A DNA stretch of 64,000 bases from Eledone cirrhosa (Eukaryota). Made by a program: the position numbers and the translations under genes. The notes under the pieces were generated by a model. The model was not told where the DNA came from, made no database searches, and worked only from the letters and a program-made list of their open reading frames with translations. Every line of letters starts with the position of its first letter. The stretch's first letter is position 1. The DNA lies in the NCBI GenBank assembly GCA_964016885.1, contig OZ024750.1, positions 45,508,001 to 45,572,000 of the forward strand, in the 5' to 3' direction. This document shows positions 691-64,000 of this stretch, in pieces.

Positions 691-710
691 TGGGAAAGGT
701 AGGTATACGA

Positions 711-776
711 CTGACAGGAAGGTAGACGGTACTGATGACAGCTAAGCTAGAAACTAGTTCATCGTTCCTTTGTCAG
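711..776 (+). ncRNA. Type I hammerhead ribozyme-like motif (minimal, palindromic stem III)
   Basis: CTGATGA (732-738), stem II AGC/GCT, GAAAC-TA-GTT. Flanks ACGGT/ATCGT, GGAA/TTCC and CTGACA/TGTCAG pair as an extended stem I. There are mismatches at the bases of stems I and II. Confidence 0.65.
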
Positions 777-884
777 TGTTTAACAAAAGAGCAGCGTTGG
801 TTGTCGAACACTGTGCGGCTAATAATTCGGGCTGTTTGTTTACAAACAAACTGAGCATTATAATAAATGTTCGGTAAACCCATA

Positions 885-1140
885 CGTACATATATATATA
901 TGTGTGCATCTATGTATGTATATACATACTACTGTATGTCTGTATACATATATGAATGTACGTATAAATACTTATATATATACACACATATATATATATA
1001 TATATATATATATATATATATATATATATATATATATATATATATATATATATATATATGTGTGTGTGTGTGTGTGTGTATAATAATAATAATAAAATGT
1101 GGAGGGGAAGCACACGAGTTAGGATATATATATATGTATA
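885..1140. repeat. (TA)n/(TG)n/(TAA)n microsatellite tract
   Basis: Directly visible simple repeats. Confidence 0.95.
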
Positions 1141-1744
1141 TGAAAACAGGGAGAAAGAGACGATTATTAGGAAGAAAAATATATATTTTTCCTTTTTTGT
1201 TTCTCTCTCTTTTTTCTGGGTTAGAAAATGATTAAAACGAAATGTTTTACTTTGTGTGAAGTGTTAAGGTATTAGTTGATTTATTTATTATTTAACAATG
1301 GCATTTATTTATTTATTTATATATTTAATTATTGTCTATTACCGGTTTCATTATTTTTATGCATTATCAAATGATAGTGAAATGTATTAGTGTGGTGTCG
1401 CATATGTTAGACAGAAGGTGCAGAAAGAATAATGTTATTTACAAACAAGGTTTATGAAGTGAAAAGAAAAAAGAAAAATGAAAAAAAATGTGCATAATGT
1501 AGAACGTAAAAGTCAATGTGGAAGAAAAAATAATGTTATTTACAAGCAAAGTCATTGAAGTTAAGCAGATCAAAATGTGTTAATATAGCAAGAGTGCTGA
1601 GTTGATCCATGATTCCGTGATGGAGGCAAATGGTGGACTGAGGTTTGATATGATTTCCCTTTTTAGAGAGTTAATATGCAGGGGGAAGCAATTCTTGCTG
1701 GATGATATTTAATTTATTAAGAAAAAATCCAACAAACACTCACT

Positions 1745-2176
1745 ATGAACCCTACAGTAACAAAATGCGGAAGGCCCAACTGTGGCATATGCATAAATCT
1801 AAAAGAAGGTTCAACATTCCATTTTAAACAAGGACAGCGTTTCACAGTTAAACACAAATTTGCATGTGCATATGAAAACCTTATCTATGTTTTGACCTGC
1901 TCAGGTTGTTAAGAGCACTACATAGGACAGACAAAAAACAGCCTCCGTCAATGTATGACCGTCCATAAATCACAAATTAAAATACAGAAATACAGAAAGA
2001 TTGCATTTAGTTAACATATCGCCAATTGTGCTCACAACCAACATCCAAACTTTAAAATTTTCCCCATTTACAAATTCATAGACAATGCTACTTTCATCCA
2101 TCGTACCAATAAGGAAACATATTTCATTAATACATTTCAGCCCCTACTTAATGTACTAAAAATCGGACCAATCTAA
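1745..2176 (+). pseudogene. GIY-YIG endonuclease of a Penelope-like element, with an upstream Cys motif and two in-frame stops
   Basis: Hand translation: MNPTVTKCGRPNCGICINLKEG...CAYENLIYVLTCSGC*EHYIGQTKNSLRQCMTVH...*HIANC...KETYFINTFQPLLN. It shows the LIY...CxxC...YIGQT, H, E and PxLN motifs of PLE GIY-YIG domains. Confidence 0.88.
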
Positions 2177-2589
2177 AACTGCAACAAACAATCAAACATT
2201 TACAAGAGTTAACTCCCTCACACCCTACCTAATCCTTTTTCTTAAATAAATTAAATATCATCCAGCAAGAATTGCTTCCCCCTGCATATTAACTCTCTAA
2301 AAAGGGAAATAATATCAAACCTCAGTCCACCATTTGCTTCCATCACGGAATCATGGATCAACTCAGCACTCTTGCTATATTAACACATTTTGATCTGCTT
2401 AACTTCAATGACTTTGCTTGTAAATAACATTATTTTTTTCTTCCACATTGACTTTTTATGTTCTACATTATGCACGTTTTTTTTTTCCTTTTTCTTTTTT
2501 CTTTTCACTTCATAAACCTTGTTTGTATATAACATTATTCTTTCTGTACCTTCTGTCTAACATGTGCGACACCACACTAATACATTTCA

Positions 2590-2631
2590 CTATCATTTGA
2601 TAATGCATAAAAATGGTGAAACCGGTAATAG
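2590..2631 (+). ncRNA. Degenerate hammerhead-like motif with a U3-A8 core in the PLE terminal repeat (mirror copy ~1336-1377 on the minus strand)
   Basis: TTGATAA-TGCATaaaaATGGT-GAAA-CCG-GTA-atag. Stem III ACCGGT is palindromic; stems I and II are imperfect. Confidence 0.45.
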
Positions 2632-2849
2632 AGTATAATTAAACATATGAATATATAAATAAATGCCATTGTTAAATAATAAATAAATCAACTAATACCT
2701 TAACACTTCACACAAAGTAAAACATTTCGTTTTAATCATTTTCTAACCCAGAAAAATGAGAGAGAAACAAAAATGGAAAAAAATATATGTTTCTTCCTAA
2801 TAATCGTCTCTTTCTCCCTGTTTTCATATATATATATATATATATATAT

Positions 2850-61424: not shown

Positions 61425-61598
61425 ACACACACAGACACACACACACACACAAACACACACACACACACACACACACACACAGACACACACACACACACAC
61501 ACACACACACACACACACAGACACACACACATATATATATATATATATATATATATATATATATATATATATATATATATATATATATATATATATAT
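61425..61598. repeat. (CA)n-(TA)n microsatellite
   Basis: Directly visible. Confidence 0.95.
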
Positions 61599-61808
61599 TA
61601 GAAAGTGAGGTTTTTTTTACAAAATTAAAAATAACCGAGGTGTCCTACACGAGTGAAAGTATAAAGAAAGAGAGATGAAATCGAAAATGCAACTGGAGTC
61701 TTATTTTTTTTTTAAATATATATATTTATTTGGTTCCTTTACCGGTTTCGCAGTTCTTCTGCTTTTCAAAAGGTGAGTTGAGATGGAGGGTCTGTGGTAT
61801 TTCTCACA
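61598..61808 (-). mobile_element. Family C element with intact U3-A8 hammerhead motif (~61736-61773)
   Basis: Minus strand CCTT-TTGAAAA-GCAG(aagaa)CTGC-GAAA-CCG-GTA-AAGG, with perfect 4-bp stems I and II. Confidence 0.75.
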
Positions 61809-61989
61809 TCTATATATATATATATTTATTAAAACAGATTAAAGTTTAAGCAAAGAATCGGTCCTTTCACCCTTAACGGGATCTTCTGAAACTTTATATA
61901 TACATATATATATATATATATGTATATATGTATATATGTGTGTATATATGTATATATGTGTATATATATATATATACACATGTATATAT

Positions 61990-62514
61990 ATATAGGAAAA
62001 AGTATGACTCCGACGGCAGAGCTCAAGCCGTTTCGACGGCTATTTCTGGAGTCCAGGGTCATATATATATAACGAAGGAGGTGTGGTAAGGAACCAGACA
62101 GACCATAACGCACCAGAGTACTCAATACTTAGGGTAGTAGAGTGGGTAATAGGAAAAGGTTTGACCCCGACAGCAGAGCTCAAGCCGTTTCGACGGCTAT
62201 TTCTGGACTGAAATAGCCGTCGAAACGGCTTGAGCTCTGCCGTCGGGGTCAAACTTTTCCTATATATATATATATATATATATATATATATATATATACA
62301 TATATATATATATATATATATAACGAAGGAAATGTGGTAAGGAACCAGATGGACCATAACGCACCAAATTACTCAATACTTAGGGTAGTAGAGTGGGTAA
62401 TAGGAATAAGTAGGACCCCGACGGCTGAGCCCTAGCCATTTCGACGGCTAATTCTGGACTGAATTAGCCGTCTAAACGGCCTGAGCTCAGCCGTCGGGGT
62501 CCTACTTCTTCCTA
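61990..62514. mobile_element. Three adjacent family B copies (half copy 61990-62060; fold-back copies ~62068-62262 and ~62320-62514), separated by (TA)n
   Basis: Same unique arm and hairpin as 54605-54804. Confidence 0.8.
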
Positions 62515-62901
62515 TATATATATATATATATATATATATATATATATATATATATATATATATATATATATATATATATATATATAAAGTTAAACGAGAT
62601 ATCGTTTTGGCTTTCCTTAGTTCAGGTTGAGAGTAACCTGTAGTTCAGGTTTAGAGTAACCTGTACCGGGCAGTGTTCCAGCGTACATGGCAGTTGACTC
62701 AACAAGGTGTTTACTAGGGTAGGTTGGTCCTTGATTGTTCCGTGATCAGTAGTTCTTGGAGTAGCTACAAGTTGTAAAAAGAGGATTAACACGGATAAAT
62801 AACTTTCAGGAGAGCTGCCCAACAGGAGGTCGTCAGAGAAGACATGTTTAGTTGAAGAATAAAGAATATTATTAAACTCTAGTGAAGTAGAGTTTAATAA
62901 T

Positions 62902-63073
62902 TGTTTCTACTTTTGGCACAAGCCCAGTGTATTACTGGTACTTTATTTTATCGACCCCTTAAGGGTGAAAGGCAAAGTTAACCTCGGTGGTATTTGAACT
63001 CAGAATGGAATGGGCCGTAACTCTTTGCGTCAAAGCATGGCGTCCGACCCTCTACTGATACTGGCAATCCACC
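62902..63073 (-). mobile_element. SINE family A copy with 18-bp TSD
   Basis: Reverse complement of 4023-4205. TSD GAAGTAGAGTTTAATAAT at 62884-62901 and 63074-63091. Confidence 0.9.
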
Positions 63074-63869
63074 GAAGTAGAGTTTAATAATATTATTTAT
63101 TCATCTATATAGGATATTACTTATTACGTATAGCAGAATAGAGAGAGAGGTTGAGTGGGAAAGAAATTGAGAGGGGAAGGAGAGAAGTGAAAGCGATGTA
63201 GATAGCATGGACGAGATACATACCCTGGGTGTTTTCGATTTAGACAGCAAGGGTATGATAAATTGGGACATAGATAGCGATTGAGTTAGAAGAGTGAGAG
63301 AGAAAAAGATGGTAGTTAAGGGAGAGACAGAAGGTGAACAATAACGACTGAGAAAGACAGGGAAATAGAGAAAGAGTGAGGAAGGGAGAGGGAGAAACAA
63401 AAGGCAAGATGGAGACAGAGAGGAATGAAAGGAAAAAGAGAGTGGGGGTGAAGCTCGAGTCAAAAATACACAAAGAATAAATAGTGCATCTGAATGTGAC
63501 TTTACGACTAGGTTAACGATAAAATATCCTTCAACGTTTAGACGCCATTTTGAGAGCTATACCAAATAATTTGAATAACTTTTTTTTTTTTCGTAAATAA
63601 TTTAATGGCTTTACTGGAAACATCTTCTGGTGGCTGAGAAGACAGTAAACTGTTTTACGCCTGACTTGGGAATAAACAAACGGAAGCACAGAATGCAATG
63701 AAAAAGAACTGAAAACGATTCGTTAAAGATTGATAGCAAACTGTTTAGTTCAAATAACGTATCATTTTGTATACGATTATACATTGTTTCCTTTATATTG
63801 TACCACCTCTCTATCTCTCTCTCACACACACACCTATATATATATATATATATATATATATATATATAT

Positions 63870-64000
63870 ATAAACAAGAAGGCGTAGGACAGAACAAAGG
63901 AGAGGCACAAAACAATGAGAAGAATCCCCAGTGACTGAAGAGGTCACAGAATGTGTGACGAAAGAACTTTGACAATATATGAGCAACCGTGCGGTTGTGG
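63870..64000 (+). mobile_element. Second copy of the 2850-3266 element, with HHR at ~63930-63973
   Basis: CTGAAGA-G-GTCACA(gaatg)TGTGAC-GAAA-G-AA-CTT-TGAC. Upstream GGCGTAGGA..AAGG..AATCCCC and downstream GGTTGTGG match the minus strand of 3030-3160. Confidence 0.75.

Follow-up and report, generated by a model that had tools for sequence, protein, structure and literature searches.

Hammerhead elements beside (TA)n tracts in Eledone cirrhosa: ends of Penelope-like elements and two retrozymes with a two-armed insertion layout

The window analysed here is a 64,000-nt stretch of Eledone cirrhosa DNA (contig OZ024750.1, positions 45,508,001-45,572,000, in a 3.0-Gb assembly) which, outside a 15-bp satellite, consists of repeat fragments separated by microsatellites. 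Its hammerhead ribozyme motifs appear to belong to 11 families: five terminal repeats (pLTRs) of Penelope-like elements (PLEs), two homologous retrozymes of the type without long terminal repeats (non-LTR) and four families with no linked parent. Hammerheads in pLTRs, TA targeting and Hydra PLEs in octopus are already known, and the elements are of known kinds; what seems to be new, in that we found no description of it in the openly accessible literature, is that the retrozyme insertions are two-armed and tail-bearing and strictly pair one long end with one short end.

Hammerhead-bearing families of the window

Most arms of the elements end at one of two sites, called long and short, of which the short lies 45-105 nt upstream. 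The PLE-linked families and the retrozymes, some of them identified with the help of open reading frames (ORFs) elsewhere in the genome, are arranged as follows; cores are given by position.

1080-1727, minus strand: PLE A left arm, inverted, with a tail of ~45 nt and a decayed U3:A8 hammerhead (core 1370), as judged from genomic copies
1724-2170, plus strand: PLE A ORF remnant, broken, with CX4CxxC linker and GIY-YIG endonuclease; it matches the 664-aa ORF of locus L048 at 85% identity
2236-2826, plus strand: PLE A right-arm pLTR, short end; U3:A8 hammerhead, core 2597, stem III ACCGGT
2852-3268: PLE B pLTR, two-armed, with a long arm at 2852-3175 (minus; hammerhead core 3104) and a short arm at ~3172-3268 (plus)
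58927-59129, plus strand: PLE C (Neptune-like) pLTR end with tail; U3:A8 hammerhead, core 58965
59157-59415, minus strand: Hydra-like PLE 3' pLTR; hammerhead core 59314, 90-nt stem II, stem III ACAATTGT
59446-59507, minus strand: PLE C solo tail, between two TA tracts
59566-59735, minus strand: minimal hammerhead element, core 59687, stem III ACGT; a further PLE ORF in two loci (L343, L103)
61599-61808, minus strand: PLE C pLTR end with tail; intact U3:A8 hammerhead, core 61769
63873-64000, plus strand: diverged PLE B pLTR subfamily; decayed hammerhead, core 63935; short-site end just past the window
708-980, plus strand: ~429-bp non-LTR retrozyme, 5'-truncated; canonical type I hammerhead, core 732 (two defects); short-site end
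47483-50934, minus strand: left arm of the 465-bp array, 7.4 units with 7 hammerheads, its 3' end meeting (TA)n at the long site (unit position 332)
50939-53480, plus strand: right arm of the 465-bp array, 5.5 units with 5 hammerheads, its 3' end meeting (TA)n at the short site (unit position 258)
52550-52624, plus strand: retrozyme tail within one unit, from the short sites 52550/52555 to the long site 52624

The window was scanned with a type I hammerhead descriptor that permits a C3:G8 or U3:A8 core and counts defects. Matches fell at 732(+), 2597(+), 3104(-), 12 array copies, 58562(-), 58965(+), 59687(-), 61769(-) and 63935(+), with an extra match at 46946 that is probably due to chance. 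Within the 17,534 nt of non-microsatellite sequence, 2, 4 and 9 motifs at 0, 1 and 2 defects stand against shuffle means of 0.007, 0.07 and 1.1, and these counts were attained in 0/150, 0/150 and 0/60 shuffles, respectively. A first-pass annotation had listed nine hammerhead sites; three of them (59202, 53820-54097 and 1336) lie outside the descriptor and were judged genuine by comparison of genomic copies, and with the two approaches combined all nine proved to be type I hammerhead motifs or decayed relics of them. The site at 59202(-) is the 3' half of a hammerhead whose core begins at 59314(-) (fold z=-3.2), and 1336(-) does pair with 2590(+), as that annotation supposed, being a decayed inverted copy of 2597 with its core at 1370. 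Motifs free of defects are those at 3104, 3392, the array, 59314 and 61769; other window copies have 1 or 2 defects, and those at 732, 1370, 2597, 53929, 53977 and 63935 are damaged. An Rfam search of the window returned a sole match, the array hammerhead (HH9, 38.9 bits, where the gathering score is 52). When five short motifs and 53977 were folded as single strands, they did not outperform shuffled sequence, which is to be expected of dimer-type or decayed motifs.

Five hammerhead families lie downstream of PLE ORFs with reverse transcriptase (RT) and GIY-YIG domains at other genomic loci. Placed by motifs and not by a tree, PLE A, B and C appear Neptune-like and the PLE of 59314 Hydra-like, with one family unplaced. 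PLE A (2597/1370) combines RT, CX4CxxC and GIY-YIG, a region found in 19/19 loci; a Pfam search of its longest ORF examined (664 aa) matched RVT_1 alone, and its 2597 hammerhead has only 2 proximal stem I pairs, family-wide. PLE B (3104/63935; 8,910 pattern matches), with a 731-aa ORF in a 4.08-kb tandem (L303), is a second and distant PLE. A non-palindromic loop III at 3104 was considered and rejected, the loop being an imperfect palindrome (AG-RA-CT). The ORF link of PLE C comes from two loci (L120, L106) with ORF-to-pLTR sequence in common; between the 2597 and 61769 families the ORFs show 42-56% identity. A CX2-5CxxC linker precedes GIY-YIG in PLE A and PLE B; Nematis has the same linker, which therefore cannot part Neptune from Nematis. 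The Hydra-like PLE is young (its best 40 copies are 98-100% identical), and its ORF (L338) has RWK, DKT, a CxCX5C linker, CxxC and CxH around conserved E and N, and a (TA)n target; a Pfam search of its C-terminal part gave zero matches. The label Nematis was dropped for this PLE in favor of Hydra-like; RWK, DKT, CxCX5C and CxH are the motifs given for Hydra in PMC8557442. Its closest named relative is BSL78_11407 (37% identity) of Apostichopus japonicus, a species named for the Hydra clade in PMC8557442. Hallmarks of endonuclease-bearing (EN+) PLEs are present, namely pLTRs, an inverted 5'-truncated copy and a tail at one end.

The 465- and ~429-bp elements fit the description of non-LTR retrozymes, being tandem, low in GC (0.37 and 0.36) and apparently non-coding (longest Met ORF 61 and 55 aa), with one type I hammerhead per unit; the ~429-bp unit recurs at 427-438-bp spacing in L015, L023 and L028. 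The two units align end to end (73% over 118 nt, E=5e-12), and the 732 element and the 465-bp array are homologous. The window array contains 3 substitutions in all, identical 465 units occur at distant loci on five contigs, and a 40-nt hammerhead stretch of the unit has 1,566 exact genomic copies (control 0). In the hammerhead helices of the retrozymes 7/16 pairs are changed on both sides and 93.8% are paired, a covariation score that 0/500 shuffles attain; pair 10.1-11.1 is unpaired in 10/12 rows of the alignment. No pLTR parent of the retrozyme unit turned up among 337 fetched loci, a set that falls short of the whole genome.

Three observations touch on the retrozymes in their own right. 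An octamer, ATGCAAAT, lies ~90-100 nt upstream of the hammerhead in both (position 366 of the 465 unit and 342 of the 429 unit), and we take it to be reminiscent of the snRNA-type (small nuclear RNA) promoter of newt satellite 2. At L032 / L345 (C5:15.56 Mb) a 3'-truncated Hydra-like ORF is fused straight to a 429 unit, possibly through an RT template switch. One array (L249, C3:349.46 Mb) has a repeated 815-bp rearranged unit, which consists of a deleted unit plus a full unit.

The four families with no linked parent occupy the following positions.

3297-3450, minus strand: hammerhead element beyond those of the first-pass annotation; core 3392, stem III ATGCGCAT
53526-53622, minus strand: left-arm tail of the 53820 element, displaced by a later insertion resembling a short interspersed nuclear element (SINE), by comparison with L054 1215-1311
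53820-54105: head-to-head terminal-repeat pair of the 53820 element, cores 53929(-) and 53977(+), stem III ACGCGCGT
54607-54802: hairpin element, two-armed, with the 3' half of a U3:A8 hammerhead and a full 6-bp stem III
62061-62260 and 62322-62515: further copies of the hairpin element
58384-58597, minus strand: U3:A8 hammerhead element, core 58562

In the fetched loci, which do not amount to a whole-genome search, these families have only incidental PLE ORF neighbours, so that the expected link to PLEs with RT and GIY-YIG was found for five families and not for 3392, 53820, 58562 and the hairpins. The 53820 pair has a stem II of ~60 nt and two decayed cores, CCGACGA at 53977(+) and CTGACGA at 53929(-), the former (U4C) being the core of the family. 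In the 58562 family GCAA replaces GAAA (A13C) in 8/8 core-covering copies; like U4C, this deviation is a family state. As a side observation, A13C amounts to a fixed change in the catalytic core, present in subfamilies only 78-90% alike (L116, L135, L251, L270, L305). The idea that the hairpin arms are a footprint of cleavage in vivo was rejected, as the arms start inside the stem II loop and not at the cut site.

As to how the families relate to each other, the 3392 and hairpin (54607/62061) families add to those of the annotation, and its view that the families are unrelated is partly wrong: the 732 element and the 465 array are homologous, and families 2597, 58562 and 58965/61769 have a U3:A8 core and stem III ACCGGT in common. 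A minimal palindromic stem III had also been proposed; stem III is indeed palindromic in nearly all families of the fetched loci, but the retrozyme hammerheads are canonical and HH9-like, not minimal. The loci scanned for this comparison contain 168 distinct motifs in 31 clusters. Hammerheads with a 50-116-nt stem II, which escape short-stem descriptors, are common (L131, L123, L338, L344, L307, L108, L117), and those adjoining an ORF (L123, L131, L338, L344, L307) sit 3' of Hydra-like ORFs. The first stem II pair (10.1-11.1, usually G-C) is often mismatched as a family state, both in the 429-bp retrozyme and in several pLTR families.

Two-armed insertions and the pairing of their ends

The 465-bp array of the window consists of a minus arm followed by a plus arm, and both its ends lie in (TA)n, which makes a target-site duplication unreadable. 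This layout recurs in the family. Among the matches listed (100 of 1,566) there are 29 clusters, 17 of them two-stranded, and all 17 run minus then plus, that is, head to head. We examined 27 loci (the window, 6 and 20 more), and 24/27 are two-armed. In all 21 arrays with two clean ends, a long end (unit position 331-332) is paired with a short one (258/263; p=5e-7 if ends were independent at 0.5). Two further loci have a locally rearranged end that still closes in the long-site motif, opposite a short end, and one other locus is interrupted; one-armed insertions, of which there are three, stop at these sites too. Contigs from the public run X1 have TA-tailed loose ends at the same three places, with at least 2, at least 6 and at least 12 contigs, respectively (among 6 of 39 rows). 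In the predicted folds of both retrozymes the short site would lie within a small hairpin and the long site 3' of a second hairpin.

The same pairing of a long with a short end was seen in PLE families and in families with no linked parent. It holds for 11/11 PLE B pairs (two of which are probably one locus on two contigs), 17/17 pairs of the hairpin family and 13/14 head-to-head pairs of PLE C. In the 53820 family it is seen directly in 5/11 pairs, and 4 more have the tail displaced by a later insertion. For the 429 retrozyme the figure is 6/13, six pairs having an end at neither site and one being short/short. Across all families tabulated there were zero long/long pairs and zero pairs abutting tail to tail. 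In the window and the even genome sample described below, 2/9 tails occur without a body.

The two arms of a 465 array are of one variant, with 0-9 differences per unit; between arrays the median difference among variants is ~1-2%, and in 8/20 arrays the two arms have array-private alleles in common. Inner junctions are unique per locus, 14/20 of them having an overlap or insert of 5 nt or less (mostly near blunt) and some having overlaps of 6-25 nt; at the target, junctions share 2-4 nt of TA-like sequence. More than one unit is present in both arms of 12/21 arrays, arms start at any unit position, and the lengths of the two arms show no significant correlation (rho 0.33, p=0.15). Of 49 5' ends of 465 arms, 6 lie within 19 nt of the cut site (p=0.014), a weak hint given that this distance was set post hoc.

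Association with (TA)n, abundance and other elements

The genome was sampled in 79 evenly spaced 10-kb stretches, not in proportion to contig size, and scanned with a stricter hammerhead descriptor than the window. The sample held 34 motifs, 29 of them defect-free, against a mean of 0.25 in 20 shuffles. Their reported position beside (TA)n was upheld: 32/34 lie within 300 nt of (TA)8+, as do 22% of background positions, and a within-locus null averaged 14.4 (p=2e-4, the smallest value that 5000 permutations allow). Where a TA tract lies within 100 nt of the motif it is on the 3' side in 13 cases and on the 5' side in 0. Two points qualify this enrichment, namely that some TA runs are element-internal (2597, 3104, 61769 and 732 families) and that two arms of one insertion enter as two matches, so that the matches are not fully independent. 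Inside the window, TA proximity by itself says little, since 60% of the sequence is already no more than 300 nt from (TA)5+. The two sample motifs far from TA (L125 and L180) were treated as possible chance matches; the L180 motif was found again in three loci. Extrapolation from 32 sampled matches gives ~120,000 intact motifs genome-wide (83,000-171,000).

Whether the TA tracts are made by the enzyme or precede insertion was approached through 82 junctions, which yielded one informative empty site (L034); it retains the (TA)7 in which the PLE B insertion at 2852-3268 sits, and here the tract was already present. Taken together, the five ORF links, the two tandem non-coding retrozymes and the genome-wide TA enrichment bear out the earlier proposal of a TA-targeted set of PLEs and non-autonomous ribozyme elements.

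Several other elements were observed in the window. Positions 1-697 (+) hold the 3' end of a long interspersed nuclear element (LINE) of the restriction-like endonuclease (RLE) type, which we take to be Dong/R4-like; it has a broken endonuclease domain, 3,685 candidates genome-wide and (CATA)n-like tails. That this LINE carries a 3' untranslated region hammerhead, as its place beside 732 might suggest, was considered and rejected: its tails are (CATA)n-like, the 10 other copies listed have no 3' hammerhead, and the 732 element is separate. A second LINE 3' fragment, presumably RTE-like, lies at 57622-58288 (-). The 15-bp satellite (6366-44039, ~38 kb) is AC-rich, with degenerate (AAC)n flanks and one possible open Thr/Asn-rich plus-strand frame, and a possible host exon of plain coding composition lies just 5' of it (5586-5760). 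A TA-flanked short family with 18 even-sample matches is present at 44679-44751, 44700-44815, 46396-46468 and 61826-61895, with a head-to-head pair near 44700-44815. SINE-like fragments lie at 3672-3880, 4020-4210, 44130-44250, 44820-44950, 53630-53818 and 62895-63075.

Origin of the insertions and comparison with known systems

A likely scenario is that successive (TA)n insertions of PLE ends and of two homologous retrozymes have stacked up in the window, and that the retrozymes were inserted by PLE RT and endonuclease in the same way as PLE ends. Its basis is what we observed directly: the motifs, their association with TA, the five ORF links, the head-to-head layout and the occurrence of one long and one short end. 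In this scenario a PLE dimer would cut a (TA)n tract on both strands, each of the resulting DNA 3' ends would prime reverse transcription at its own one of two fixed sites of the element RNA, and both cDNAs would extend to variable lengths before being joined head to head. The retrozyme template would be either a circle made by the hammerhead or a multimer left uncut, given that arms run past the cut site repeatedly (up to 15 times). Arrays may enlarge further through local duplication, and each new end would create a TA junction for the next insertion, which would account for the pile-up of elements. There is precedent for parts of this scheme. An inverted arm and a one-end tail are frequent in PLE copies (PMC3846280, PMC8557442), Hydra-1_Obim of Octopus bimaculoides prefers (TA)n (PMC8557442), and a Poseidon PLE assayed in vitro cuts the two target strands and extends each of them, with two internal RNA start sites that define the tail (PMC11167929).

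We also entertain, tentatively and with somewhat more doubt than confidence, a narrower version in which a PLE RT dimer primes both (TA)n ends on one RNA circle, at sites ~70 nt apart, the enzymes chasing each other round and the multimeric cDNAs being joined head to head. The pairing would then be a general PLE rule, and the genome would hold a still active family and >100,000 hammerheads, many of them of the long-stem-II type tied to Hydra. With a single RNA serving both ends, the enzyme that starts downstream would have to displace the cDNA made by the other, and the solo tail at 59446-59507 would be the product when the displacing enzyme stops. If true, this version would explain the PLE tail and the inverted copy in a single step.

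Several points weigh against PLE-mediated insertion of the retrozymes or against the details given above. Retrozyme RNA, whether linear or circular, and its cleavage are predictions, and no RNA data set was listed among those that contain the unit. One low-depth circular contig of the unit came from each of runs X4 and X6, but a tandem array or cross-sample carry-over would look alike, and a dimeric circle, considered as the template of array C1:69.4, was rejected because the spacing there is due to point mutations. The fetched loci revealed no helper PLE: none of the 465 loci has a PLE ORF upstream, and the 429 family has one direct PLE junction (L032) and one distant, probably incidental, neighbour. 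Repeated unit patterns in 3/7 arrays indicate growth after insertion, and since arrays also grow in this way their length is no proof of rolling-circle copying. Queries that contained the hammerhead were used to find the loci, and those fetched exclude 8 single-copy clusters among the 29 listed. The 53820 family includes two short/short pairs (of 11) that lack a tail in their vicinity, a pre-existing TA target was seen at one site only (L034), and in the older arrays C1:94.5 and C1:92.9 each arm resembles many other arrays at least as closely as it resembles its partner arm. Finally, the in vitro work reports start sites that do not differ between strands and no requirement for hammerhead cleavage (PMC11167929).

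The sharing of variants between arms would suit a pair of RNAs transcribed from the same source locus no less than a single RNA. It is conceivable, although we consider it unlikely, that the same elements and PLE enzyme are at work but that the arms come from two RNAs in one dimeric particle, possibly paired via the palindromic stem III, with one subunit set per start site. Nearly all families have such a stem III, hammerheads of this kind are described as dimer-acting (PMC4209133), the PLE protein is a predicted dimer (PMC11167929), and a common source locus for the two RNAs would lead one to expect same-variant arms. However, equivalent RNAs offer no built-in reason for the 21/21 long/short pairing, and private alleles are found in both arms of 8/20 arrays despite the small median difference between arrays. 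The retrozyme arrays might instead be solo pLTRs that were inserted as monomers and amplified in place by unequal crossing-over, the two-armed layout being inherited and no retrozyme RNA mobilised (the model of 10.64898/2026.07.22.740005). The local duplications in 3/7 arrays and the abundance of solo and paired pLTRs are what such a model predicts; we nevertheless regard it as improbable, as the 465 unit occurs without an attached PLE ORF in every fetched locus, arms start anywhere and are often multi-unit on both sides, private alleles span the inversion and identical units lie at distant loci on five contigs.

Two further possibilities concern the inverted arm itself. Head-to-head palindromes are common and some inner junctions have overlaps of 6-25 nt, as might be expected if the inverted arm arose by self-priming (fold-back) of one cDNA or of an antisense template, as PMC3846280 proposes for Penelope. 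A copy cannot exceed its template arm or contain sequence absent from it, however, whereas the short-ended arm is the longer in 13/21 arrays, and in 6/21 the long-ended arm is below one unit and the other above one unit; given this asymmetry neither arm can be a fold-back copy of the other, and we consider this origin very improbable. LINEs are abundant and one adjoins the 732 copy, and L1 twin priming likewise yields an inverted arm, so that a LINE (RTE, CR1 or the RLE type of 1-697) could in principle move the retrozymes by L1-style twin priming, with convergent likeness to PLEs. This seems to us the most far-fetched of these explanations: RLE-type LINE copies end in (CATA)n-like tails, with no 3' hammerhead in the 10 other copies listed, and the PLE-end families show the same fixed two-site tail into (TA)n, a feature called unique to PLEs in PMC11167929.

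We favor insertion of the retrozymes by PLE enzymes. Retrozymes have been described as circles with PLEs as candidate helpers, PLEs having been named a 'strong candidate' mover from co-occurrence (PMC7229834) and later from pLTR homology (10.64898/2026.07.22.740005); the argument of these two sources runs through shared hammerheads, co-occurrence and pLTR homology. The present data add that the signature of PLEs is visible in the retrozyme insertions themselves, whose start sites are located to the single base in a family young enough for identical units at distant loci. The strict long/short pairing also constrains how the PLE tail and inverted copy are made, a step listed as unresolved in PMC8557442.

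The PLE ends resemble the PLE-repeat minimal hammerheads of Cervera & de la Pena (2014; PMC4209133) in their short stem I, palindromic stem III and U3:A8 core, and in the thousands of solo copies and opposite-strand pairs 100-700 bp apart reported there. They differ from that account in that many families here have a 50-116-nt stem II, one is U4C, one is A13C and one has a full stem III, and the ~120,000 intact motifs extrapolated here compare with ~9,000 reported for Xenopus with a different descriptor. The long-stem-II and core variants may have been seen before, as work by Lunse et al. from 2017 reportedly deals with PLE hammerhead variants and may already include them. The PLEs share with the Neptune and Hydra elements of Craig et al. 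(2021; PMC8557442) an RT with C-terminal GIY-YIG, pLTRs, an inverted copy, a one-end tail and (TA)n targets, as well as the linkers, which are CX4CxxC in PLE A and B and CxCX5C with RWK/DKT in the 59314 family. Their account gives a tail of 30-40 bp, 'often' at one end, whereas the tails seen here measure 45-105 nt and in nearly all two-armed copies stand strictly opposite a short end. A repeat annotation of Octopus vulgaris lists 31 recently active PLE families, and its main text does not use the word 'ribozyme' (PMC13282606).

The retrozymes, for their part, agree with the metazoan non-LTR retrozymes of Cervera & de la Pena (2020; PMC7229834) and Li et al. (2026; 10.64898/2026.07.22.740005), which are 429-470-bp non-coding tandem units of 36-37% GC with a canonical type I hammerhead per unit and for which PLE helpers are proposed. 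The two-armed layout, the PLE tail and the (TA)n targeting seen here were not found described in the accessible parts of either source; the second proposes a pLTR origin and local amplification, and the word 'tail' is absent from its main text. Poseidon PAc in vitro (Frangieh et al. 2024; PMC11167929) offers the closest parallel to the mechanism favored here, in its two start sites that bracket the tail, its AT-rich targets and its predicted dimer as well as in the cutting and extension of both strands, the difference being that no strand difference in start site was seen there, whereas the genomic pattern here has different sites at the two ends. The 465 retrozyme is a ready substrate for this published assay, in which both the helper question and the mechanism of the tail would be directly testable.

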